From contig JANOQV010000009.1 in assembly GCA_031414955.1 (NCBI GenBank), forward strand, positions 1 to 48,671: 48,671 nt of DNA. The letters run 5' to 3'. This document shows positions 22,979-48,671 of the stretch, piece by piece. A program made the position numbers and the translations under genes. The notes below the pieces were generated by a model, which saw only the letters and a list, made by a program, of their open reading frames with translations, did no database searches and had not been told where the DNA came from. The stretch comes from Pedosphaera sp. (GTDB lineage: Bacteria > Verrucomicrobiota > Verrucomicrobiia > Limisphaerales > SIBH01). How positions within the stretch are numbered: position 1 is the stretch's first letter; each line of letters starts with the position of its first letter.

Positions 22979-24907
22979 ATGAACAAATCCTACGCACCGA
23001 TCTCGCTGCCTCGCTTGCGCGCCATTGGCACCAGTATCCGCCTGCTGGCTGCGGTGCTGGCGCTTTCCGTGATGACCAGCCGAAGCCTGGCCATCAATGC
23101 GAGTCCCACCCCCGTCCAACTCAAGCAACCGGATGGACGCAGCATTACCCTGCGAGTGCGCGGCGACGAATACTGTCACTGGTTCGAGGATCTGAATGGC
23201 TACTCGGTTGTATTGAACAAGGGCGCCTACGTGTACGCGGTCCGCGACACACAGGGTGGTTTGGCTCCGACCGCTCTGGCAGTTGGCGTCGCCGATCCAG
23301 CCAGTTCAAATGTCACGATCAAGAGCGGGCCTACGCCGGCCTTCAAAAGCCAAAAGCGGGCCGCGGTGTTGGGCCCGCCGAGGCCGCGGCACCTCCGCCG
23401 TCCATCGCGCCCGTGGGCACAATTAAGAACCTCATCATTCTGTGCCAATTCAGCGACCACACCCTGGGTGTTCACACCCGGGCACCTTCTGATTACACCA
23501 CCTTGATGAACGCCATTGGGGGAGATCCAGTTCTCGCTCCCACAGGCAGCCTGCTGGATTATTACAAAACGAACTCCTACGGGACCATGACCCTGACGAG
23601 CACCGTGGTCGCGTGGGTCACGCTCCCGCAGACCGAGGCTTATTATGGCAACGGGAATGACGGACTTGGTAGCGCTCCAAACAATGGCCAGCGCATGGCG
23701 GAGGACGCGCTGAATGCCGCCAATGCCGTCGTGAACTTTGGCCAGTTCGACTCGGACAACGATGGCTTCGTCGATTCCATCGACTTCATTCATTCCGGCT
23801 ACGCGGCGGAGACGGGCAGTGGAGGCGGCAATTGGATGTGGTCCCATCGCTGGGGTCTCAACTCCACCAGGTCGAGCGGCGATTTGAACGGCTTGGGTGT
23901 CAGCGTCAAAGCTTCTGATTATCACACCGAAGCCGCGCTCTGGGACACCAGTGGCACCAACATCCTGCGCGTCGGCGTCATTGCCCATGAAACCGGTCGC
24001 TTCTTCGGATTGCCGGACTTGTATGACAGTGATGGCACCAGCGCGGGCATCGGCTCCTATTGTTTGATGGCGAACTCGTGGGGCTTCGACGGCACGCAAT
24101 ATCACCCGCCGCAATTGAGCGCCTGGTGCCGCCAGCAGGTAAACTTCACGGTGCCGACGGTCATCGGTGCCGGGACTTACAATATCGGTCGGGCGGAAAC
24201 CGTCTCGCAGACCTTCAAGGTCAACAGCGGCTATCCGAGTGGCGAGTATTCTGCGCCAGACGGTGCCTGGCACCTTCGTAACTCACGTGACCCTGGCGGG
24301 CGGTGCCCTGGATTCTCAGGCCTCCGTGGTTCTGAACGGCAACGCCAATGATTACGTGGCGTTAACCGCGGGCGTCATCCAGCGTTGGCGCACCAACGGT
24401 TCCTTCCTCGGCACCGTCACTCTCGCCGGCTTCGGTGCCGTCCCCGGAGAAAACGCATCCTTTCAAAACGTGCGGCTGGCCGCGGTGGGCAACAACTGGC
24501 TGACCTACAACGCGAATCGCGTGCTCTCGATCTGGAGTCAGCGCGGCTCCCGCATCGCCACCACCACCCTGCAAAATGCCGGCGCCGGCACCATCGAGGC
24601 CCAGTTTAGCCTCAGCTACTGCGCCGGGAAGGTCTTCGTAGTGGATGCCCCCGCCGGACTGTGGCGCGGCTACGACATCTGCACCTCGCCCGAGCGGCCG
24701 ATCCTCTCGAACCCCGTGCGCCTGGGCGGCGGCCAGTTCCAGTTGAACCTGCACGCGCCGCCCGCCCGCCCTTACATCCTCGAACGCACGGCCAACCTCA
24801 CCACCTGGACGCCGTTCCTGACCAACACTCCGCTGGCCCCGAACACCATCATCACCGACACCGGGGCGGCGGGCAGCATTCTCTACTACCGCGCCCGCAC
24901 CCAGTAA
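22979..24907 (+). pseudogene. disrupted M6-family (immune inhibitor A-like) metalloprotease gene in three frames
   Basis: signal peptide and QPDG...GDE prodomain; frameshift near 23375; M6 core (DYYKTNSYG, FDSDNDGFVD, HSGYAAE, WSHRW, HETGRFFGLPDLYD, CLMANSWG); out-of-frame junction near 24250 to a C-terminal module paralogous to 29125-29785. Confidence 0.8.
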
Positions 24908-28000: not shown

Positions 28001-29785
28001 GAACGCGGGAACGCCGATGATGGCGACCGGCTGCGCGCGACCCCGGGCGGTGTGGCGGTGGCGGGCTACACGGCTGTCCCGGAGGACGCCGAAGCCGCCG
28101 TGGTGATCGGCAACGCCGGCCGGACCATCGTGAACGCGCTGGCCCTGGAGAACGCAACCAGCGCCCCGGCCCAGGCCAGTCAGTTCGCGTTGAATGAAAT
28201 CTTCTACCTGCTCGCGCCCCTGAAGGGCGGAGGACGCGTGGCCGTGCTGGGCGCGGAACCCAACACGGGCTGGAACGAGGACGTGCGCCAAAAGCTCCTG
28301 AGCACGGCGGCGTTCGAGGCGGTGGATGTGTTCCAGGTGGACACGATGACTCCGACCCTGGCGCAGTTGCGACCCTACTCGGCCGTGCTCGTCTATTCGG
28401 ATTTGCCTTTCGACAACGCCACCACGCTGGGCGATGTGCTGGCCGACTACACCGAGGCGGGTGGAGGCATCGTGGTTTGCACCTTCGCCCTGCACGAATT
28501 GGGCTCGGGCTATGGAGTTGAGGGACGCCTCCGTTCTGGAGGCTATCTGCCGTTCGTGGGAGTGTCGCAGAGTCAGGGCACCGAGGTCACCATGTTGCCT
28601 GATCAAACCGGGCATCCCATTCTGGCGGGGGTGGGATCGATGAGCGGAGGCAGTTCCAGTTTTCACAATATCGCGGAGGTGGCCAGCCATGCGGATTTGA
28701 TCGCGCATTGGAGCAACGGGCGTCCGCTCATTATGAACAAGCTCACGGGTCTGGGTCGCGTGGCCGGGCTGAACTTTTTTCCGCCCTCGGAAACATTGCA
28801 GGCCAACCTCTGGCGCACCAACAGCGGCGGCGGCCAGCTCATGGCCAACGCCTTGCGCTGGGCCGCCCTGCCCGACTGCACCTTGAAGACCAACTACACC
28901 GCCGACCTGACTTTCACGGACAGCCTGGGCGGCAACACCATGAGCCTGGCCTTCGACGGCACGAACTTCTGGTCGGCCAGCGGCGGCGACACCAACGGCA
29001 ATCGCCTCGCCCGCTACACGGCGGCGGGAACCTTCGTGGCTTCCTACGCGCCGGCCATCGATTTCCGATCCCTCTTCACCGATGCCCGAGGCCGGCTCTA
29101 CGCGCGCGGCTCGGACAGCCCGGCCATCCTGCGTCAAACGACGCCGGGAACTTTCCTTCCTCATCTGGTCTTGAATGGCGGGCCGTTGGATGAAGCGTCC
29201 GCCGTCGTTTTGAGCGGCAACGCCAACGAGTACCTGGCGCTGAACAATGGTGTGGTCAGCCGGTGGAGCACGAACGGCTCTTTCCTCGGCACCGTCACTC
29301 TCGACGGCTTCGGCACCCTCGCCGGAGAGAGCAGCGACTATCAAAATGTGCGCCTGGCCGCGGTGGGCAACGTCTGGCTCACCGGGAACGGCAGCCGGGT
29401 GTTGTCGGTCTGGAACCAAAGCGGGGCCCGCCTCGCCACCACCGTGCTGCAAAACGCCGGCACCGGTTTTGATTCCAAGTACAGTTTCAGCTACTGCGCC
29501 GGCCGGGTCTGGATCGTCGATGCCCCCGGCGGATCGTGGCGCGGCTACGACATCTGCACCTCGCCGGAACGCCCCGTCATCTCAAACCCGGCCCGCGTGG
29601 CGGGTGGAAGGTTCCAATTCGATCTGCGCGCGCCGCCTGCCCGCAGTTACACCCTCGAACGCACCGCCGATCTCATCAACTGGGTGACCTTGACGAATTT
29701 CGTGCCCCTGGCTCCCAACACGGCCATCACCGATGACGGCACTGCGGGCCAAAGCAACCTGTTCTACCGCGCCCGCACGCCGTAG
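25067..29785 (+). CDS. 1572-aa secreted multidomain protein: zincin-like N-terminal domain, three cadherin/Ig-like repeats, further domains and a C-terminal sorting-like domain
   Basis: signal peptide; FDFIGLALREFTEIMGR...MDLFHFSA...YFSIDNG...DAQDW; three 135-aa repeats; ends FYRARTP. Confidence 0.85.
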   Translation: MNKARLHLVPRTLRLVKSTVGVALTALFLAATASASALIINLTYDPDGTFTNAGLSAVDIVNMKTASAQAAALLTTNFTDQINVNIHITAEPGTNTLGRSSTVLIATNFATLRARLLADATGPDDATATGPGGSLPSSDPFGGSTNFVVSRAQAKALGLLADDAVTLDGTFTFGGGHSFAYDPTNRAVVGNFDFIGLALREFTEIMGRGFVMGAEAEGSPGYMVMDLFHFSAAGVPAFNTGAGRYFSIDNGTTSLKDFNNYDLNGRDAQDWASGANDAFNALSSADVKNDLTEVDLRVLEVIGYNRLTLPIALDATGLTWTTGGNVSWFPQTNVTHDGVDAARSGGITHSQSSFVEASVTGPAALSFWWKVSSETTFDALTVAMDGNVSNSISGEVNWQLRTLAVPAGAHTVRWTYSKDGSSSAGSDAGFLDQVTVALAPVLAGLEAGAVAYTENQAAVLLTATITASDADSANLASATVSITTGFTSGQDVLAMTPNPQNGITAAYTAGTGVLTLSGASAVANYQSALRSVTYTNTSENPSNATRTVTFRVNDGASGSNPQSRNITVAGVNDAPVLASIGASAVAYTENQAATLVTATITVTDADSATLTGGTVSLSTNFASGQDVLGMNPNPQNGITATYSAGTGVLTLSGSSTVVSYRTALRSVSYTNTSDTPSTALRTVTILANDGAVDSNPQSRNLTVAAVNDAPVLANLEPGALGYAASQAATPVTATLTASDADSTNLVSGTVSLTAGFNIGQDLLAMTPNPQNGISASYNAGSGVMSLIGASAVSNYQAALRSVTYSNSSANPSTATRTVTFLVNDSPANSNPQARNITVSGPSLIPPITPTNGGVTSILLFVDDPGSLSPYKTALDFAGLGHQYFTNEALFSAAVAASNPVSTLVIVNSTVSNHNFSPLITFVANGGRAILQYQNLDGDAALAAAFNVAVTQDVLTPLNLSNWDGTYFFARVASPLILSERGNADDGDRLRATPGGVAVAGYTAVPEDAEAAVVIGNAGRTIVNALALENATSAPAQASQFALNEIFYLLAPLKGGGRVAVLGAEPNTGWNEDVRQKLLSTAAFEAVDVFQVDTMTPTLAQLRPYSAVLVYSDLPFDNATTLGDVLADYTEAGGGIVVCTFALHELGSGYGVEGRLRSGGYLPFVGVSQSQGTEVTMLPDQTGHPILAGVGSMSGGSSSFHNIAEVASHADLIAHWSNGRPLIMNKLTGLGRVAGLNFFPPSETLQANLWRTNSGGGQLMANALRWAALPDCTLKTNYTADLTFTDSLGGNTMSLAFDGTNFWSASGGDTNGNRLARYTAAGTFVASYAPAIDFRSLFTDARGRLYARGSDSPAILRQTTPGTFLPHLVLNGGPLDEASAVVLSGNANEYLALNNGVVSRWSTNGSFLGTVTLDGFGTLAGESSDYQNVRLAAVGNVWLTGNGSRVLSVWNQSGARLATTVLQNAGTGFDSKYSFSYCAGRVWIVDAPGGSWRGYDICTSPERPVISNPARVAGGRFQFDLRAPPARSYTLERTADLINWVTLTNFVPLAPNTAITDDGTAGQSNLFYRARTP
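26381..27583 (+). repeat. three intragenic tandem repeats with 405-nt period
   Basis: APVLA-coding starts at 26381, 26786, 27191; conserved PNPQNGI, YxxALRSVxYxN, SNPQxRNxTV. Confidence 0.9.
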
Positions 29786-39545: not shown

Positions 39546-40610
39546 TCAACTCCGGGCGAAACTCTCCGTCCGCCGACGCAACTGCCCACACGCCGCGTCG
39601 ATGTCCTTGCCGCGCGAGCGGCGGAAGTGCGCGACAAGTTTCCGCGCGCGCAGAATTTCAGCGAACGCCTCAGCCGTCTCATCCGATGATGGCTCGTAAG
39701 CAATGCCACGCAGACTCAACCCGGTGGGATTGTAGCGCAGCAGATTGATGTGCATCCGTCGCGAGCCGATCAATTCTGCGAGCAGCCGCGCGTGTTCCAG
39801 CGAGTCATTCACGCCCGCGAGCAGGCAATACTGAATCGTCACCGGCCGTCCGCGACTCGCCTGAAAACGATCCGCCGCCGCGAGAATGTCCGCGATGGGA
39901 TAGCGTTTCCCCATCGGCAGCAACCGGGCGCGCGTGGCGTCATCGGGCGCGTGGAGAGAAACCGCGAGATGAATGTTCAACCCCGTCGCCGTGAGCGCCT
40001 CGATGCCCGGCACGATGCCAACCGTGGACACAGTGATCTGCCTCCAACCCAGCGCACCGAGTTTATTATCCGCCATCCGCCGCACCGCCGCGAGCACCGC
40101 GTCGAGATTCAGCAGCGGTTCGCCCATGCCCATGAAGACCACCGTCTGAAGTTTGCGCCCGACCGCCTGCGCCTCGCGTCGCAAGGCCAGGAACTGCTCC
40201 ACGATTTCTCCAGCGGTGAGATTGCGTTCAAAACCCGTCTTCGTCGTGGCGCAAAAATCACACCCCATCGCACACCCCACCTGCGATGAGATGCACCCCG
40301 CCGCGCGGTCGTCGCGAAAGTCCGGCATCAACACCGACTCCACCGTGCGCCCATCGCCAAGCCGCAGCAGCAGCTTGGTCGTCCCATCCGTCGCCACCTG
40401 TCGCACCGCCAGCGTCGCCGCACTCGGTGTGAGTTCCGCCCGCAACCGCTCGACCAATCCCTGCGGTAGCCCGCGTGACGGCGAACTCACGATGTCGCCA
40501 CCCGCATAGAAAGCTCGCAACACCCGCGCCGCGTGACTGGGTTTGTAGCCCCACGCCGCGAACTGCTTCGCGAGCGGGGCGGGATCGAAGTCAGCGAGCG
40601 GGGCAAACAC
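39546..40610 (-). CDS. rlmN: RlmN/Cfr-family radical SAM RNA methyltransferase
   Basis: CISSQVGCAMGCDFC, MGMGEPLLN, SLHAP, DIDAACGQL. Confidence 0.93.
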   Translation of the reverse strand: MFAPLADFDPAPLAKQFAAWGYKPSHAARVLRAFYAGGDIVSSPSRGLPQGLVERLRAELTPSAATLAVRQVATDGTTKLLLRLGDGRTVESVLMPDFRDDRAAGCISSQVGCAMGCDFCATTKTGFERNLTAGEIVEQFLALRREAQAVGRKLQTVVFMGMGEPLLNLDAVLAAVRRMADNKLGALGWRQITVSTVGIVPGIEALTATGLNIHLAVSLHAPDDATRARLLPMGKRYPIADILAAADRFQASRGRPVTIQYCLLAGVNDSLEHARLLAELIGSRRMHINLLRYNPTGLSLRGIAYEPSSDETAEAFAEILRARKLVAHFRRSRGKDIDAACGQLRRRTESFARS

Positions 40611-40650
40611 AAGGTGACGGGGCTTTGGTCAGCATCGGGGAAAAGCGATC

Positions 40651-40932
40651 TCAGTAAACCTCGTCGTGCGTACCGATCGCTTCGAGAGCAACGGCTGGCT
40701 GTCCCTCATGTTTGGTCAGGCGGAAGACGACGCGCAAATCATAGCCGCCGCTGGCCGACCAAGAACCTGCCAGCGCGCCCTTGAGCTTGTGGGTTCGCAA
40801 CGCCGGAGCGAAAGGGTCAGCGGACAGACATTCCAGGAGGCTTTCTATTTCCGACGATGCTCCCGGATGTTTTTTGAGGTATCGCTTGGCAGAGCGCAGG
40901 AAGGCCGGGCTGGGCAGCAGGACGTGCTTCAC
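40651..40932 (-). CDS. RelE/YafQ-superfamily type II toxin
   Basis: [11 protein letters not shown]...[19 protein letters not shown]...YDLRVVF...IGTHDEVY. Confidence 0.9.
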
Positions 40933-41135
40933 GGTTTCACCTGGCGCATGATGGAGGCGACGGAAGCGGGCTTGCACTTGCCGGCGGCCTGTTCTTTCCG
41001 GGACTGCTTCACAGTCGCGATCAGTTCAGCCCGGCGGCGTTCCGTCAGGCGGCGGTTCATGATTTCCAAGACAGACTCTTGTTCCTCAAGAGGCAAGGCT
41101 TCCAAAGCTTCCAGCGTGGCGGCGTAGCTGTTCAT
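40929..41135 (-). CDS. cognate antitoxin
   Basis: 68 aa, [15 protein letters not shown]...RRAEL; GTGA overlap with the toxin. Confidence 0.8.
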
Positions 41136-41142
41136 GGCGGGA

Positions 41143-41171
41143 ACGATACGTTTGGCAGTTGAATTTGCCAA
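41143..41171 (-). promoter_or_regulatory. TA promoter with overlapping inverted repeat
   Basis: minus strand TTGGCA-17 nt-TATCGT, 7 nt before ATG; TTGGCA-N8-TGCCAA inverted repeat overlaps the -35. Confidence 0.55.
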
Positions 41172-41177
41172 TCCCGG

Positions 41178-41210
41178 AAACAAAAAGCTGCCCCGGTTTC
41201 CCGGAGCGGC
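41178..41210 (-). terminator. intrinsic terminator after ppdK copy A
   Basis: GCCGCTCCGG-GAAA-CCGGGGCAGC followed by TTTTTGTTT. Confidence 0.85.
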
Positions 41211-41229
41211 TTGGTGATCCTGAAGTCGA

Positions 41230-41700
41230 TTACTTCTTCTTCGCAGGTTGGCGCCCTTGCGCTTCTCCTCGATGGCCGCCTGGGCGGCGGCGAGGCGGGC
41301 GACGGGGACGCGGTAGGGTGAGCAACTCACGTAGCTGAGGCCGAGCTTGTGGCAGAACTTCACAACATGGATGCAGGCCCCGCCTGCTCGCCGCCGTGTT
41401 CGCCGCAGATGCCGAGCTTGATGTCGGGCCGGGTCTTGCCGCCCTTCTCGATGGCGATTTGCATGGGGTAGGGCGGGCGACTCGCCTGCCTGAGCGCGTC
41501 TCGCCGCAAAAGGCCGACGCGGGTCTGGTCAATCGTGGCAAAGGGTGGGCGTCCGCCAGAACTTCTTCTTCACGATTTCCAGTTCCGCGTAGCCGGGCAG
41601 GAAGCTGCCGGAGTCGTCGCGGGACATGCCGAGCGCGGTCTGCGTGAGATCGTTGGTGCCGAAGCTGAAGAACTCGGCGGTGTGCGCGATCTCGTCGGCC
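41230..41700 (-). pseudogene. ppdK: ppdK 3'-end copy A, degenerate
   Basis: [29 protein letters not shown]...GICGEHGGE...[20 protein letters not shown]; three short insertions and frameshifts. Confidence 0.92.
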
Positions 41701-41783
41701 AGGGCTATAAGCCCGACAGATGATGGCCCAGGGCAACGCCCTGGGTTAATCGTCAAACAAGTTGTTCAAGCCCTGTAAGGGCG
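41701..41783 (+). repeat. REP-like left arm of RM cassette 1
   Basis: AGGGCTATAAGCCCGACAGATGATGGCCCAGGGCAACGCCCTGGG...AGCCCTGTAAGGGCG; first 36 nt match the reverse complement of 45062-45097 at 31/36. Confidence 0.85.
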
Positions 41784-41837
41784 AGGTAACGATGTCGCCG
41801 CCCGCATAGAACGCTGACAACGGCAGGTCGTCAGGCA

Positions 41838-43835
41838 TCAAGTGAGAACCGCATCATCAATGCTATTCAGTAGCCGTTGAATTCGCCCCGTCTCCTTGCG
41901 TTGCACCAAGTATTCGCTGTAGATGTGGCGCGTGTTATCCAAGAGTTCTTTGTAAAGCAACACACGCATTCCCTTCCTGCGAAAGACATCCTCATCTTCG
42001 TCGCGCCGCTTCGGATTGTTCCAGTTCTTGAGCGGAACTCCGATCAGAAACACGACTTCAATCGGCTCGTTCTCCCTCCTGCGGTTCACGAGCAATGCAG
42101 TCAGTCCATCGCGATACTTCTCGCCCTGCTTGAGCAAATCGCCGAGTTCCATCTTCCGTTCAGGCCGTTTCAGTTCGATGATGACGTGGGTCTTGGAGGT
42201 TGTGGAATACTTGATGTCGAAGCGCGCCTTTCGCTCATCCTCAGAAATTTCCGATTCGGCAAAATCGATGAACTCTTTCCGCAGCCCGGACTCGACGTAT
42301 TCCGTGTCTGTGGCCCGCTCCCACGCGGGGTCGAGCAACCACAAGTGCGAGTAAACGTAATCTCGGATGACAGATTCGAGTTCGTTGCTGTCCACCTTCG
42401 ACTCCAGTGCCTCAATGACTTCGATTCGTCCGCTAAGAATCTGATGATAAAGGCTGGCTTCAATGTCGTCCAAGTCCGCAAAAATTTCACCGACGAGAGC
42501 TATATCCTCGGGTTTAATTTTCTCCAAGGCATCCAAATTTTCTTTGTAGCGTAAGTGCTCAAACGCCAAGACCCCGTATTTGAAGAGCTGTTTCTTGTCC
42601 TGCGGTGATTCGATGGTGAGTTGGTTGATTTTGCCAAACAGCGAACTCGCCTTGCGCTTGCCGTCACCCCCGAGGTCGTTGAACCACGCTTTGATGGCGG
42701 GTATCTGCATCGCCTCCTCAGTTCCGCGTTTGTTGCGGAGATCGGTCCACTTGTTCTGGATATGCTTCAACTCCTGTTGAATGAACTCGCGCAGAGCAAC
42801 GTAGCGTGGATCATCCTCCATGATTTTCTGACGACTGCTGGTGGCAATGTCGTCCTGCTCGTTCAGGTCGAGAAAGTCCGCGTGAATCTCGCCAATCAGA
42901 TACTTGGAATACATCCCGCCTTCGTTGAAGTCCTCAAGGATGTCTTCCTGCGCCATCTTTCCCCGCACCATCACGACAATCTTGTTGAGGTTGTCCTCCT
43001 CGTCTTTCAAGTCACCAGACTCCCGGACGGTGCCAATCCAACCCGTGACCTGAAACTTCTGCGCCGGGTCGTCTCCCTCGGTAGGAAGCGCGATTTCATT
43101 CGCGCGCTCTTCGCACGAACCAAGTTTGTCAGGGTTGGAGATGGGCAGCGCATCAATAGTCCCATAGTGCCAAAGGAACTGGAGCTTCGAGAAATAGCCG
43201 CGATCAACGATGCTGACCGGCTTCGAGTTGATCTTCAGCGCGAAACACGATTTCTCGCCGAGGATGCTGAAACGGCGAGCCAGTCGCTTCCGTAAGGCCG
43301 CTTCGGTCTGATGTTGGCTCTTCTTCAGTTCAGCAAGGACAATTCGCGTGCCCTTCTGGAGGTCAGCCGGAAAGTCGGAAAGAACCGAGGGCTGATAATC
43401 AGATTCCTTCCGCGAAATTTTTGCCTCAATTTCGGAAAGAAGCATTTTGAAGCCGCGCTTATCGCCATTTTTGACGGTGTAAATTCGGATGTCCTTAGCG
43501 ATGGAAAACAGTGAAAGCTTGCCGATTCCCTTTCGCCCCATCACTGGGCGCAACAGAGTCGGCGAGACTGCGCCTTGATTGCCTGGGTCGCGACGGCGGT
43601 AGCCAATCGTGAGGAATTTTCCGTTGATGTCTTCCAAATCCATGCCGTGACCATTGTCGGTTATCACAATTGTGCCGCCGCGCTTATCGATCACGATGTC
43701 CACACTTTCGGCATCTGCATCCCAAGCGTTGGCTACGGTCTCCGACAAAACCGCAGGAACATTGCTGTAAAGATTGATGCCGAGATGGTTGAGCAAGTTT
43801 AGGCTCAACGTCATGTGGTAAGGCGATTCAGGCAT
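41838..43835 (-). CDS. GHKL-ATPase / PD-(D/E)xK restriction endonuclease (HgiDII/BbrUII-like)
   Basis: ETVANAWDADA, DNGHGM, GRKGIGKLS, GT GHKL motifs; HLWLLDPAW; RFDI...IIELKRP nuclease motif; coupled to an m5C MTase; lower GC than the flanks. Confidence 0.8.
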   Translation of the reverse strand: MPESPYHMTLSLNLLNHLGINLYSNVPAVLSETVANAWDADAESVDIVIDKRGGTIVITDNGHGMDLEDINGKFLTIGYRRRDPGNQGAVSPTLLRPVMGRKGIGKLSLFSIAKDIRIYTVKNGDKRGFKMLLSEIEAKISRKESDYQPSVLSDFPADLQKGTRIVLAELKKSQHQTEAALRKRLARRFSILGEKSCFALKINSKPVSIVDRGYFSKLQFLWHYGTIDALPISNPDKLGSCEERANEIALPTEGDDPAQKFQVTGWIGTVRESGDLKDEEDNLNKIVVMVRGKMAQEDILEDFNEGGMYSKYLIGEIHADFLDLNEQDDIATSSRQKIMEDDPRYVALREFIQQELKHIQNKWTDLRNKRGTEEAMQIPAIKAWFNDLGGDGKRKASSLFGKINQLTIESPQDKKQLFKYGVLAFEHLRYKENLDALEKIKPEDIALVGEIFADLDDIEASLYHQILSGRIEVIEALESKVDSNELESVIRDYVYSHLWLLDPAWERATDTEYVESGLRKEFIDFAESEISEDERKARFDIKYSTTSKTHVIIELKRPERKMELGDLLKQGEKYRDGLTALLVNRRRENEPIEVVFLIGVPLKNWNNPKRRDEDEDVFRRKGMRVLLYKELLDNTRHIYSEYLVQRKETGRIQRLLNSIDDAVLT

Positions 43836-44913
43836 GATGTTCCTCCAAGTGTCGTTTGATGGTTTTCCCGACTATCTCTCCCAGCCGCACCGGAACCGCG
43901 TTGCCAATCATTCGCCCGATGGTCTTGAAGCAGTATCTGCCGCCAGGCGGCACGAACTCGTAGTCCTCCGGGAACGATTGGAGAATTGCACCTTCGCGCA
44001 GTGAGATGGCGCGGTCTTGCTCAGGATGGCCGAAGCGCCCGTTGCCGAAGCCGAAGAACTGCGTGGTGATGGTGGGCGAGGGTTTGTCCCACTCCATGCG
44101 GCCATAAACGCTCGGGTAGGTCTTGCCAGTCTTGACCTGGTGGCACTTGGCGACGAGTTCGCGCGGCCAGTCGCGCCAGGTGCCGCCGGGCCGGGAACGG
44201 CGGATGCGGCGGAGATTGAGCGGTGAGAGTTCGCTGGTGCGGTGGAGCGGGTCGGCGGGGGACACGTCGCCCGCTGCGAGCGCCGGCAGAGGGCGCAACA
44301 CATCGCAAACTTTGCGGTGCTGGGTGGGCGCGTGCGTGGGCGCGATGAGTTCGATGGGGCCGAGACGTGAAGCAATCAGCACAAGGCGGCGGCGGTGTTG
44401 CGGGATGCCGTAGTCGGGGCAATAGACGACTTGCTTCTCGCGATCCTCGGTGAAGTGAAAGCCCTCGTCGGCGAGCGTGGCGAGGAAACGGTCGAAGATG
44501 GAGTGGCGCTGAATTTCAGGAACATTCTCCATCGAAACAATGTCGGGCTTCAGCTCGCGCACGAGGCGGGCGAATTCATTGAGCAGTTTCCATTTCGGAT
44601 CGTCGCCGTTGTCGCGACCTTGCGTGTATTTCGAGAAGGTCTGACAAGGGGCGCAGCCCACAAGGATACGCGTGTGCCCAGCGGGATAATGGGCGGCAAG
44701 CATTGCGCCAGTCACTTCGGTGACGCTGATTTTTTTGAACTCGGCTCCGGGGTTATTGTGTTCGTAAGGGAAGTGGCACGCAGCATCCACGTCGTAACCA
44801 GCGGCGACGGGAATCCCGGCGTCGAGCAAGCCGCGCGTCAACCCGCCCGCGCCGCTGAAGATGTCAACTGCGGTAGCGCGTGCCGGTTTGGTGCGTGAGG
44901 AACGGCGGCTCAT
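43828..44913 (-). CDS. C5-cytosine DNA methyltransferase
   Basis: DIFSGAGG (I), GCAPCQ (IV), ENV (VI), YGIPQHRRR (VIII), REGAILQSFP (IX), IGNAVP (X). Confidence 0.96.
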   Translation of the reverse strand: MSRRSSRTKPARATAVDIFSGAGGLTRGLLDAGIPVAAGYDVDAACHFPYEHNNPGAEFKKISVTEVTGAMLAAHYPAGHTRILVGCAPCQTFSKYTQGRDNGDDPKWKLLNEFARLVRELKPDIVSMENVPEIQRHSIFDRFLATLADEGFHFTEDREKQVVYCPDYGIPQHRRRLVLIASRLGPIELIAPTHAPTQHRKVCDVLRPLPALAAGDVSPADPLHRTSELSPLNLRRIRRSRPGGTWRDWPRELVAKCHQVKTGKTYPSVYGRMEWDKPSPTITTQFFGFGNGRFGHPEQDRAISLREGAILQSFPEDYEFVPPGGRYCFKTIGRMIGNAVPVRLGEIVGKTIKRHLEEHHA

Positions 44914-44997
44914 GTTTCACGCATTGTTTCCAGAACTGCGACGGACGCGCAAGGTTCCAAGCGAGTCCGGTCGGAGTTTATCAGAGAGGCGGCTCTG

Positions 44998-45097
44998 GCA
45001 CCACTTCAGGGTGCATGAACTCTCTGGACGGTTGACCCGGGGCGTCGCTCGCGGACTCGCTTTGCCCGGGGCTATCATCTGTCGGTCTTTCAGCCCT
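44998..45097 (-). repeat. REP-like right arm of RM cassette 1 (inverted)
   Basis: GCACCACTTCAGGGTGC...CCCGGGGCGTCGCTCGCGGACTCGCTTTGCCCGGGGCTATCATCTGTCGGTCTTTCAGCCCT. Confidence 0.85.
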
Positions 45098-45111
45098 GCT
45101 TTGGAGGCGGC

Positions 45112-45144
45112 AAACAAAAAGCCGCCCCGGTTTCCCGGAGCGGC
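45112..45144 (-). terminator. intrinsic terminator after ppdK copy B
   Basis: GCCGCTCCGG-GAAA-CCGGGGCGGC followed by TTTTTGTTT. Confidence 0.88.
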
Positions 45145-45230
45145 CAGATGGGCGCTCACCACGAGGGCGAGCTAACCCTGCGTGCTGGACACCGAAGCGT
45201 CCGCACAAGGTCTCCTTGCGGAGACAATCC

Positions 45231-45642
45231 TTACTTCTTCTTCGCCGGCTTCGCAGCGGCCTTGCGCTTCTCCTCGATGGCAGCTTGCGCGGCGGCGCGG
45301 CGGGCGACGGGGACGCGGTAGGGCGAGCAGCTCACGTAGCTGAGGCCGAGCTTGTGGCAGAACTTCACGGAATCGGGTTCGCCGCCGTGTTCACCGCAGA
45401 TGCCGAGCTTGATGTCGGGACGGGTCTTGCGGCCCTTCTCGATCGCGATCTGCATGAGCTGGCCCACGCCGGTCTGGTCAATCGTGGCGAAGGGATTCTT
45501 CTTCACGATCTCGAGTTCCGCGTAACCGGGCAGGAAGCTGCCGGAGTCGTCGCGCGACATGCCGAGCGCGGTCTGCGTGAGGTCGTTGGGGCCGAAGCTG
45601 ATCCCGCCACGCGGGCTGGCGGTGTGTGCGATCTCGTCGGCC
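45231..45642 (-). pseudogene. ppdK: ppdK 3'-end copy B
   Basis: ADEIAHTA[SPRGGI]SFGPNDLTQ...[10 protein letters not shown]...[13 protein letters not shown]; 5'-truncated at the same point as copy A. Confidence 0.93.
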
Positions 45643-45683
45643 AGGGCTGTAAACCCGGCAGGTGATAGCCCAGGGCAAGCGAG
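45643..45683 (+). repeat. REP-like left arm of RM cassette 2
   Basis: AGGGCTGTAAACCCGGCAGGTGATAGCCCAGGGCAAGCGAG, homologous to 41701-41736. Confidence 0.8.
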
Positions 45684-45752
45684 ATGAAGTTCGCGCCCAC
45701 CAATCGCTCGTCCGCCCTCGACGGCGAACTGCCAATCAAATAATCTCCCGTT

Positions 45753-46643
45753 GTGCCGCATCCGAAACTGCCCAAGCCAACGACCTTCGCCGACTACAAG
45801 CCGGACGGGCGCAATTGGATCACCCTCGCGACCGGCGAATACTTTCCCGACATCCTCAAGGACGCCTGCCTGCTCTACGGACCAGTCCTCGTGCTTTTCG
45901 GGCAGCTCCTGCGTTCATCGGAATCCTCGACGCGGCTGATGATGCAGATTTCTGAGCAGACGGACGGCTGGATGCGCGTTCAACTCGCCCGCGTCTTTCG
46001 CAAATACGTCAGCCCCGAGACGCCGGTGGAAATGCTCAAGCAGAAATCGAAAGCGGCGAAAATCTGCGAGGAATTCGGCAAAGGCTTCCGTCCCGTTCAC
46101 GAAGTTCAGGCGGCGTTCTCCACGCGCCCGTTGCCGGATGAAGCTCTCTGCGCGCTGCTTTGGGAATACAAGGACCGTGGCAAAAAGGGCTACGACCTCA
46201 CTGAACGCCTTTTCGCCATGTTCCGGGATAAATTTCCGAACCTTCCGCTGTCCGGGCCGGAACGCGCAGGAAAGGACATTCTGCTTGGCGATGTTTTCCC
46301 GAATTATCCGAAGCCCAGCCGCCCGGTGGACTTCATCATCCGCGACCCGGTGAAAGGCGACGTGCTCGCCGTGGGCCTCGCACGCTACGACGGAGATCGC
46401 GGCGGCGCGCAGGAAGACGACCGCACCGGTGGTTACAGCAACTGTGCAGACGAAGTGCTGGCCTACGCGCGCAAGCACGGACTGCGCACCAAAGTCATCT
46501 TCATCAACGACGGCCCCGGCCTCCTGCTCGGCTCGATGTGGAATGACTACGCCGCTCTGGAGCGCAGTCACAAGGGGCGCATCCTCGTCGCCACCCTTCG
46601 CATGGTGCCGGAGCGGCTCACCCGCGAATGGCTCGCCTCTTGA
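45753..46643 (+). CDS. type II restriction endonuclease, BstEII-like from recalled similarity
   Basis: RPVDFII...[20 protein letters not shown]...FINDGPG; directly upstream of an amino-MTase. Confidence 0.72.
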
Positions 46644-46644
46644 C

Positions 46645-48153
46645 ATGGCCACCGGCATTCCAAATTCCAACGGCGGCAATGGGCGCACCCCGGCACGGAT
46701 GGGCGAAGCCGCAACAGTCACATTGACCTACCCCGGAAAGAAATCTGTCGCGGCCATTCTCGCCACGCCGCCCGCGAAAATTTCCGTCGCGTGGTCAGGC
46801 GAAACCTCTCCTAGCCGCAACGCACTTTACTACGGCGAAAACCTCGCCGTCCTCGCCGCTCTCTCCCACGACCCGCGAGTGCGGGGCAAAGTTCGCCTTA
46901 TCTACATCGACCCGCCCTACGCCACGCGCAGCGTCTTCCAGTCGCGCAAGCAGGCCGACGCTTATCACGACCTTCTCGCCGGGGCCGACTATCTCGAATT
47001 TCTCCGTGAACGCCTCATCATCCTGCGCGAACTCCTCGCCGCCGACGGCAGCATTTACGTCCACCTTGATGAAAATATGGCGTTCCAAGCCAAGGTGCTC
47101 ATGGACGAAATCTTCGGCCCGTCAAACTTCCGCAACTGGATCACGCGGAAGAAATGCAATCCCAAGAACTACACGCGCAAGACCTACGGCAACGTCTCCG
47201 ATTACATCCTCTTCTACACAAAGACCGACGATTATGTCTGGCACCGTCCGCTCATTACGTGGACCGACGAACATGCCGCGCGCGAATACACCTACGTCGA
47301 ATCCGGCACAGGACGGCGCTACAAGAAAGTTCCGATCCACGCCCCCGGCGTTCGCAACGGCGAAACCGGAAAGACATGGCGTGGCATGACGCCGCCGCCC
47401 GGCAAACACTGGCAGTATCTACCCAGCACCCTCGATGAAATGGATTCGCGCGGCGAAATCTACTGGTCCCCGACCGGCAACCCGCGCCGCAAAATTTACC
47501 TCGACCAAAGCGGTGGCATTCCAGTGCAGGACATCTGGACGGAGTTTCGCGACGCGCACAACCAGAACATTCGCATCACCGGCTACCCGACCGAGAAAAA
47601 CCCCGAGATGCTCGCGCGCATCATTGCCGCATCTTCCAAGCCCGGTGACCTCGTGCTCGATTGTTTCTGTGGCTCCGGCACCACGCTCGAAGCCGCACAC
47701 CGTCTCGGTCGTCATTGGCTCGGCGTGGACAACAGTGCCGAGGCTATCCGCACCACGCTGGCCCGCTTCGCCAAAGGCGTCGAGCCGATGGGCGATTTCG
47801 TCCGTCGGATGGAGCGCGAAGACACGACACAAAGCGATGAAACGATGCTGCCACTGTTTGACCTGAACGTCCCCATCAAGAAAACGAACGACGACAACGG
47901 CGCACACGAACCCATCACGAATTTCGCCCTTCATGTCGCCGCCGGTCTGCACAGCACCGAAGTTTTGAAGCACTGGCCCCCGGCTGGATCGTCACAGTCA
48001 TCGCCATCAGTCGGGAGCGTTGCCGACTACGACGCGGCTGCCCTTCGCGAGGAACCTGCGTCCCCACCCACCCGGGCAGTTCCGCCGCGCCGCGCAGTCC
48101 GCTATTCCGTCAAGAGAGTGAAGCGCAAGCCCGCTGCAAGAACTTCAAAATAG
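46645..48153 (+). CDS. N6A/N4C DNA methyltransferase, beta class
   Basis: LIYIDPPY (motif IV) precedes YPTEK...VLDCFCGSGTT (motif I). Confidence 0.94.
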   Translation: MATGIPNSNGGNGRTPARMGEAATVTLTYPGKKSVAAILATPPAKISVAWSGETSPSRNALYYGENLAVLAALSHDPRVRGKVRLIYIDPPYATRSVFQSRKQADAYHDLLAGADYLEFLRERLIILRELLAADGSIYVHLDENMAFQAKVLMDEIFGPSNFRNWITRKKCNPKNYTRKTYGNVSDYILFYTKTDDYVWHRPLITWTDEHAAREYTYVESGTGRRYKKVPIHAPGVRNGETGKTWRGMTPPPGKHWQYLPSTLDEMDSRGEIYWSPTGNPRRKIYLDQSGGIPVQDIWTEFRDAHNQNIRITGYPTEKNPEMLARIIAASSKPGDLVLDCFCGSGTTLEAAHRLGRHWLGVDNSAEAIRTTLARFAKGVEPMGDFVRRMEREDTTQSDETMLPLFDLNVPIKKTNDDNGAHEPITNFALHVAAGLHSTEVLKHWPPAGSSQSSPSVGSVADYDAAALREEPASPPTRAVPPRRAVRYSVKRVKRKPAARTSK

Positions 48154-48190
48154 CCGCCGGGCGTGCGTGGGCTTTCACGAAACGCTGGCC

Positions 48191-48223
48191 AACAAAAAGA
48201 CCGCCCCGGTTTCCCGGAGCGGC
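48191..48223 (-). terminator. intrinsic terminator after ppdK copy C
   Basis: CCGCTCCGG-GAAA-CCGGGGCGG followed by TCTTTTTGTT. Confidence 0.88.
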
Positions 48224-48308
48224 CAGATGGGCGCTCACCACGAGGGCGAGCAACCCTGCGTGCTGGACGCCGAAGCGTCCGCACAAGGTCTCCTTGCGGA
48301 GACAATCC

Positions 48309-48671
48309 TTACTTCTTCTTCGCCTTCGGTGCGGCGGCTTTGCGCTTCTCCTCGATGGCGGCTTGCGCGGCGGCGAGGCGGGCGACGGGGACGCGGTAGG
48401 GCGAGCAGCTCACATAGCTGAGGCCGAGCTTGTGGCAGAACTTCACGGAATCGGGTTCGCCGCCGTGTTCGCCGCAGATGCCGAGCTTGATGTCGGGCCG
48501 GGTCTTGCGGCCCTTCTCGATGGCGATCTGCATGAGCTGGCCGACACCGGTCTGGTCAATCGTGGCGAAGGGATTCTTCTTCACGATTTCCAGTTCCGCG
48601 TAGCCGGGCAGGAAGCTGCCGGAGTCGTCACGCGACATGCCGAGCGCGGTCTGCGTGAGGTCGTTGGTGCC
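48309..48671 (-). CDS. ppdK: pyruvate phosphate dikinase C-terminus, running off the window edge; may be the intact gene or a further copy
   Basis: uninterrupted [16 protein letters not shown]...[10 protein letters not shown]...[19 protein letters not shown]. Confidence 0.85.

Follow-up and report, generated by a model that had tools for sequence, protein, structure and literature searches.

Insertion with long target duplication (ILTD), described for restriction-modification (R-M) genes by Furuta et al. 2010 (PMC2853133), is among the described systems closest to the locus analysed here: a tandem array of dead ppdK gene tails and defence genes in a 48,671-nucleotide contig of Pedosphaera sp. 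(JANOQV010000009.1, positions 1 to 48,671; ‘the window’, which is contig C9 of the binned 6.5-Mb genome GCA_031414955.1, here G000). As in the ILTD cases presented there, the array holds restriction and modification genes in an insert shorter than 20 kb, with no mobility gene and with a long direct repeat (>30 bp); we found all of these features, no other mobile element, and an empty allele. R-M genes between imperfect inverted repeats are also described in that work. Unlike those ILTD cases, the array duplicates a coding tail together with its terminator, is tandem, and has one junction found across five families; moreover, direct and inverted repeats occur in one unit, and the inverted ones are dispersed and tied to Y1 transposases.

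Displacement of rhs C-termini (Jackson et al. 2009, PMC2935791) likewise leaves strings of gene fragments, differing in length, behind an intact gene, as the tandem ppdK fragments do here, and is explained by homologous recombination without an integrase, with a circle model. Unlike the rhs loci described, the tail here is conserved and dead, the payload lies behind a terminator, there is no variable toxin tip, and exchange reaches across families. Hotspots without an integrase (Oliveira et al. 2017, PMC5635113) share a defence-rich variable site without a mobility protein beside a recombining core gene, although, in contrast to the hotspots as described, both homology arms lie here in one gene and the downstream neighbour need not be shared. 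IS200/IS605 elements and Y1 transposases associated with repetitive extragenic palindromes (REPs; Quentin et al. 2018, PMC6006769) share hairpin ends beside HUH Y1 genes. Subclass 1.2 is given in that survey as generally lacking typical terminal structures, whereas long three-hairpin arms are found at each one here; and, unlike the IS200/IS605 elements it describes, our cassettes are without tnpA, a GTAG foot or a fixed target word. Acido-Lenti-1 is catalogued as a probable RNA from Acidobacteria and Lentisphaerae (Weinberg et al. 2010, PMC2864571); the similar arms here behave instead as dispersed repeats that border Y1 genes and cassettes. Finally, the array has neither the integrase gene nor the fixed crossover and displaced own tail of an integrase-type genomic island. 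A search of the literature, with most subscription journals outside its coverage, yielded no report of docking at ppdK, of these arms or of their combination.

While the footprint is already known, what appears to be new is that one junction can be traced over five families, with Y1-linked arms as putative swap points and IS110-like patches. We consider it likely that the tandem array arose by insertion with long target duplication and has been kept moving by host homologous recombination. Defence genes could then move between bacteria too distant for ordinary flank-to-flank replacement, as the copy of the core gene’s tail would travel with the cargo and supply the second homology arm; the one junction and four scars would constitute a natural record of crossovers across five families. 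Two leads follow: a candidate DNA substrate for a Y1 subclass that has not been studied, and with it a possible function for an orphan Rfam motif; and short, apparently IS110-derived patches recurring at fixed bases.

Two dead ppdK tails begin at the same base

On the minus strand, the array starts with an unscarred ppdK 3′ end, a terminator, cargo 2, the truncated arm L2 and ppdK tail copy 2; it continues with a terminator, arm R1, cargo 1, an rlmN remnant, arm L1 and ppdK tail copy 1, and ends with a terminator, a toxin-antitoxin-like pair and rlmN. Both dead tails are fused to the foot of an arm at the same ppdK base (junction J). The features are as follows.

39546–40610, minus: rlmN, the native downstream neighbour of the array in the genus (TIGR00048, 319 bits, cut-off 290)
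40654–41135, minus: distal cargo, a YafQ/YoeB-like toxin gene with a small upstream partner, toxin-antitoxin-like
41178–41210, minus: terminator-like hairpin copy 1, one of the three-copy repeat D9
41230–41699, minus: dead ppdK tail copy 1 (distal), carrying scars B, C and D
41364–41387: scar D, a hairpin in place of 9 nt of ppdK
41465–41511: scar C, a 47-nt insert with a hairpin, in place of 5 nt
41546–41562: scar B, an insert of 16–17 nt
41700–41783, plus: arm L1, a three-hairpin repeat, its foot CAG fused to ppdK (J at 41699/41700)
41780–41831, minus: rlmN remnant (5′ end with upstream region), attached to the arm via GGCG
41838–44913, minus: cargo 1, a type II restriction enzyme (HATPase domain) and a C5 methyltransferase
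44997–45098, minus: arm R1, inverted relative to L1
45112–45144, minus: terminator-like hairpin copy 2
45231–45641, minus: dead ppdK tail copy 2, carrying scar A only
45602–45617: scar A, a 16-nt hairpin in place of 7 nt
45642–45698, plus: arm L2, truncated, its foot fused to ppdK (J at 45641/45642)
45753–48153, plus: cargo 2, a BstEII-like protein (lead only) and an N6/N4 methyltransferase
48191–48223, minus: terminator-like hairpin copy 3
48309–48671, minus: unscarred ppdK 3′ end, taken as the end of the intact gene, with the 5′ part on contig C21 (the link to C21 is inferred, not assembled)

The original prediction, made from this sequence, held that both truncated ppdK copies begin at the same base, which they do, with the join placed one base too far to the right: ppdK homology ends at 41699 and 45641, the next letter, C, belonging to the arm’s foot, and ATCTCGTCGGCCAGGGCT is found at 41689–41706 and 45631–45648. 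The junction 20-mer occurs twice, as compared to 0.00 expected (100 shuffles), and is no chance match. On the intact gene, J falls in an assembly gap (C21 ends at model position 732 and the window begins at 760, with the join at 746). Loose contig ends from the two runs that hold the window (10 and 6 contigs, matched at 88% likeness, to which relatives may contribute) continue past 41699 as GGTGAGGGCGCC; since they diverge there, ppdK identity ends at 41699/45641. The proviso that intact ppdK might itself read through the junction did not materialise, as all 27 intact relatives with readable context carry one extra codon (T, V or I) at the join. A 5-nt look-alike, GCCCT, is present both in the arm tip and in intact ppdK one codon upstream of the join.

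Cassette 1 lies, as predicted, between the inverted arms L1 and R1, the tips of which are identical at 31 of 36 positions. The suggested GGGCTTTCA remnant of a right arm at cassette 2, near 48169, is not supported: this 9-mer occurs 92 times in the genome and has no partner hairpin here. It is also found at the corresponding place in G009, the copy of cargo 2 in which has no full arm. Two features had gone unseen, namely the short foreign insertions in both tails and the rlmN 5′ remnant at the inner end of L1. The remnant (41780–41831) has local scores of 45–50 against rlmN of G000, G008 and G009 and 32 against that of G007, with a null maximum of 31 in 3000 random windows; it constitutes a second join of an arm to a housekeeping gene, with the 4-nt overlap GGCG. 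As the rlmN piece is carried by cargo 1, cargo 1 once had rlmN as its immediate neighbour, an arrangement still seen for cargo in G007, G008 and G009; rlmN itself is placed identically in G007, G008, G009 and G011.

The cassette units measure 3.9 and 3.1 kb and the direct repeats about 490–520 bp; the duplicated coding tail with its terminator comes to about 530 bp. Cargo 1 was typed by PADLOC as REase_II (E 8e-101) with a methyltransferase, in addition to Pfam matches, and has a GC content of 0.558 versus 0.627. The methyltransferase of cargo 2 matches MTase_II (PADLOC, E 6.7e-140), and the BstEII-like lead stands on Atlas features at 0.98 to clusters auto-named BstEII; cargo 2 is also found in G001, G009 and G199. 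The distal toxin matches PF15738 below the cut-off (E 1.9e-5), with weak NCBIfam matches, and its module recurs at 87% in G078, behind a terminator repeat. No integrase or transposase was found in the cargo of the window and its close relatives. No RNA source is listed for the window.

Two observations concern stretches of the window outside these features. About 90 bp between the ppdK stop and the terminator (45144–45230 and 48223–48308) contain hairpins and are conserved in several families; the stretch is missing from the distal copies. Elsewhere, 24248–24906 and 29126–29784 form a 660-bp repeat (73%), in one case a short open reading frame (ORF) and in the other the end of a 1572-aa ORF without a Pfam match.

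Junction J and scarred tails recur in five families

The original prediction called for a search for the junction in other genomes, and among 401 genomes of the order this yielded six further copies in five genomes. In total, J is present in eight copies in six genomes of five families: twice each in G000 and G199, and once each in G001, G021, G134 and, decayed, G018. G001, of the same genus, has the cargo 2 unit at 90.5% over 3268 bp, with the equivalent of 45111–48314 whole on one contig, and arm L2 of G001 and G199 is almost the same as here. In G199 the skeleton and the outer junction of arm R recur, with a helicase-type cargo in place of cargo 1; the G199 array lies in the gene context of its own genus and family, and the congener G025 has an empty site with one target copy and a matching terminator flank. 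For G000 the only trace of an empty allele is a joint of 40593–48193 in run X3, with unknown letters between. The outer junction of arm R1 is common to G199, G134 and G078; G134 has a T5orf172 gene at the cargo position, and G078 has other DNA behind the same R junction. A c-di-AMP riboswitch above the gathering score also lies in G134 (L148:15781–15948).

Wider searches added no copies. In 300 genomes of the class, a strict and narrow J pattern found only G000, and one of its two copies; the scan of genome contigs gave six loci, two true (copies already known) and four chance matches in other genes. J was found neither in metagenome contigs (no matches, then four chance ones) nor in viral contigs (five chance matches). 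Within the order itself, a loose pattern gave mostly noise, with only G199 real among 17 fetched regions.

Four short foreign inserts, scars A–D, lie at fixed places in the dead tails. Copy 2 and both G199 copies carry A; G021 carries B; G134, B and C; copy 1, B, C and D; G001, A, B and C; and G018, A, B and part of C. Scar A and/or B is thus present in all eight J copies, the sets being mosaic, which is what crossovers between scars would give, and no scar was found in 10 aligned intact or native ppdK 3′ ends. As a clean host tail is expected after a cut at J, J most likely arrived with a scarred tail, and the working crossover then lies further 3′. The original prediction offered two origins for the junction. 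The founder unit that later swapped its cargo is supported by J in eight copies, all scarred, and by different cargo between the same outer arm junctions; a hairpin-guided, site-specific event each time is not supported, in view of breakpoints that vary across the order, the lack of a Y1 gene on the contig and the lack of a fixed tetranucleotide beside the arm tips.

The variable breakpoints come from other ppdK fragments. Two or more matches to the ppdK C-terminus occur in 27 of the 401 genomes, G000 included (the count takes in G316, on which nothing else rests). We looked at 22 of the other 26, of which seven were dropped for contig-end splits, frameshifts or second long copies; truncated copies inside contigs are present in 15 genomes, and G018 and G078 came to light separately. 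Besides the J copies, 17 fragments have a mapped start (from 15 of 16 windows, two of them weak, and from G020 and G216). None starts at J, so that the varying breakpoints which the original prediction named as its refutation do exist at the level of the order, and six start upstream of it, which means that these are not trimmed J copies. Around the ppdK fragments of the other genomes, 60 ORFs include no integrase or transposase.

Probable exchange of ppdK across families, and a proposed mechanism

As judged by identity to G007, the ppdK tail is discordant with gyrB: G000, G020, G078, G134, G162, G199 and G291 have tails 91–96% identical to that of G007 and gyrB only 74–81% identical, while their relatives G003, G027, G102, G107 and G219, with similar gyrB values, have ppdK tails at 79–86%. 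Identity steps up at the tail from 75–80 to 89% in G216, from 88–91 to 95% in G101 and from 86.5 to 96% in G000. The protein of the proximal tail is 95–100% conserved among exchange partners. The idea that only the 3′ end of ppdK is exchanged proved partly wrong, the whole gene being G007-like in G199 and G162.

From the shared junction, shared scars, changing cargo, variable starts, discordant ppdK and lack of a mobility gene we infer the following mechanism. A single illegitimate join, probably aided by the GCCCT look-alike one codon away, would have attached a three-hairpin arm by its foot to ppdK, some 400 bp short of the stop codon, yielding ‘ppdK – terminator – cargo – arm|ppdK tail – terminator’. 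The tail would thereafter serve as the second homology arm for host RecA recombination, as suggested by the observed footprints: incoming DNA would pair in the ppdK body and in the tail, or a circle would cross over once, and since both pairings are within ppdK, the cargo would land behind any ppdK, whatever gene follows. For ppdK to stay whole, the distal crossover would have to lie 3′ of the last scar, in which case the junction and preceding scars are carried unchanged; copies would begin at the same base because the junction travels unchanged with the tail. Repeated docking would stack cassettes. Cargo, seen to differ between the same arms, would be exchanged by crossovers or microhomology joins inside the arms, with any enzyme involved being putative. 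Cassettes probably arrive by DNA uptake, G000 having both comEC and dprA over cut-off, and the likely benefit is a turnover of anti-phage genes. Transformation-driven duplication through repeats has been described (PMC3784515).

Several points weigh against recombinational spread of one founder unit. No transfer has been observed, and the exchange genomes were picked for high tail identity and are all binned, which makes the discordance a pattern that falls short of a test. Both comEC and dprA are common (10–11 of 14 controls) and are no proof of competence, and recombination at about 75% genome identity presupposes that ppdK itself was already shared. What follows J varies between two arm subtypes and includes several inserts, with only C-A-G (mostly CAGG) constant; the codons beside J differ in G134; and the arm meets ppdK precisely at its foot, which is where an enzyme would have cut it. 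The scars add a further difficulty. Scar D also occurs in G204 (twice) and G226, and scar B in G204, at the same bases, in fragments that lack J and whose sequence to either side is closer to other ppdK alleles. Gene conversion from the adjacent intact copy may have repainted these flanks, or else the scars were re-made; in the latter case the argument from shared scar to descent is weakened, and the same could apply to J. Patches written repeatedly at short matches would resemble short-patch double illegitimate recombination.

The arms adjoin Y1 transposases

The arm is a dispersed three-hairpin repeat with 30 copies in the genome, as counted with a hand-made pattern. Arms are mosaics of subtypes: R1 is chimeric, its outer half being of one subtype and its inner hairpin of another, and L2 is cut off within the second hairpin. 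In relatives the first hairpin is often interrupted by inserts of 13–90 nt, as noted at L103:8688–8730 and L148:574–670 and in run X3; the corresponding places in the window are 41700–41706 and 45642–45646. The proposed tie to Y1 transposases was borne out. Arms adjoin 5 of the 12 Y1 matches (PF01797) of G000, and these are exactly the five with the motif Y---Q--HH (on C172, C90, C184, C89 and C53; L009–L013), with arms inverted at C90 and direct at C89. The motif is the signature of TnpA-Y1 subclass 1.2 as defined by Quentin et al. (PMC6006769), by which we assign them; by NCBIfam, four of the five proteins are IS200/IS605 transposases, over cut-off. The outer two hairpins resemble Rfam RF01687, Acido-Lenti-1, and fit the model over its whole length; against a gathering score of 37 bits, the C105 arm reaches 47.5, L1 36.2, the G021 arm 35.5 and three others 32–35; R1 and L2 of the window are not listed at E 0.05.

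These arms lend some credit to a mixed origin, in which a Y1 (HUH) transposase acting in trans cut the arm foot for the founding join and still swaps cargo, with host recombination doing the docking, and which we regard as possible, if unlikely. Besides the five arm-flanked genes, it would account for the intact foot at J and for cassettes bounded by inverted arms without any ppdK tail, such as an NgoMIV-type restriction enzyme with a C5 methyltransferase (C105:76758–79305, L222) and cargo in G008; in addition, crossovers inside arms would have only about 100 bp of imperfect likeness to work with. The cassettes thus have end hairpins of the type seen beside the transposase, and yet none contains tnpA. 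None of the 12 PF01797 matches is on C9, duplicated tails without arms are common (see below), and the C105 cassette has no clean empty site, only G008 of five genomes having matched, with other DNA there. Nor is there a fixed tetranucleotide beside the feet: 16 different 4-mers precede the AG foot that is common to the 20 arms parsed out of 30, and these share no GTAG or GTGG foot and no fixed target word. Plasmid searches gave two weak arm-like matches only.

Two of the scars resemble an IS110-family end

Together with its flank, scar D agrees at 30 of 31 positions, read in antisense, with the 3′ non-coding end of an IS110-family element from G334, scoring 57 against a null maximum of 32 (n = 1200); 10 of the matching bases also match ppdK itself. 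The core of scar B, in its G134 form, has a 14-nt exact match to the same end (28 versus a null maximum of 26); the G000 and G204 forms do not rise above the null, and scars A and C have no match to it. The IS110 end with both sequences lies at L284:150–672 (G334:C393), and in G000 pieces like D and B stand alone at C301:10580–10745, where there is no transposase match. Many IS110-family elements carry a bridge RNA in a non-coding end (PMC11208160). As sources of the scars, the two IS110 genes of G000 were rejected, being of another type, and so were its common REPs, each scar occurring once. The IS110 end was not found in plasmid searches, and two scar patterns had no matches in viral contigs. 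At scar A, 13 bases (45600–45612) are shared, inverted, with the rlmN start of G007 (L056), which may be chance.

One way of combining arms and scars would be a two-part traffic without an enzyme of its own, in which a subclass 1.2 Y1 in trans swaps arm-bounded cargo, the ppdK tail docks it across families, and pieces of an IS110 end that bears a bridge RNA are written repeatedly at the same bases of the dead tails, possibly copied from RNA with priming at a 10-nt match; we offer this as a rather speculative scheme. It is improbable that J itself was re-made repeatedly at one base by a sequence-guided enzyme, be it a Y1 hairpin or an IS110-type RNA guide, the shared base thus reflecting targeting and not descent. 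In G134 and G018, the arm subtypes and the ppdK codons that meet at J are different ones; this, and the recurrence on different alleles of scars D and B with their IS110 matches, are what such an enzyme might leave. A freshly displaced host tail would, however, be clean, whereas every J copy is scarred; moreover, J turned up in only 6 of the order’s 401 genomes, fewer than have other starts, and the class genomes (one strict pattern), metagenome and viral contigs hold no further copy.

A classical island, with an integrase in trans, an attachment site at J, the ppdK 3′ end replaced and the old tails displaced, is highly improbable: an intact gene, cargo and a displaced 3′ end with a fixed start have the textbook look, but the cassettes scanned have no integrase in them or nearby, the order shows varying starts, and the scars largely refute it, since tails scarred 3′ of J are not the host’s own. 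An assembly or binning artefact is scarcely credible even though all genomes are draft or binned, contigs often break in repeats and no listed contig of four runs spans the whole array, as G001 holds a whole unit on one contig, G199 and G134 have the skeleton in native or continuous context, and the copies differ by scars.

Duplicated tails of other genes

A repeat screen of G000 gave 49 pairs, of which 22 were inspected. Tail copies lie downstream of genes for DUF1501, pyruvate carboxylase, DUF1549/1553 and aldehyde dehydrogenase, on contigs without a listed arm; together with the variable ppdK starts, such armless tails indicate that tail duplication is general and that neither arm nor J is needed for it. 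Further duplicated tails with cargo between them are found in G000 at C137:57182–62584, C140:9236–12784, C229:1238–2518, C244:2937–4889, C292:37182–39451 and C159:3162–5833. The C137 tail adjoins, by eye, a remnant of a GTAG-type repeat, and the C292 repeat may be a glmS end. On C3, C12, C56, C67 and C165 of G000, repeats resemble duplicated 5′ ends or upstream regions of long ORFs. In G078 (L163:5062–5913), an unrelated ORF ends with the last 10 ppdK codons, followed by a ppdK-type terminator, and in G204 (C82, L198) at least four scrambled ppdK pieces lie within 7 kb, one of which fuses two non-adjacent parts of the gene.

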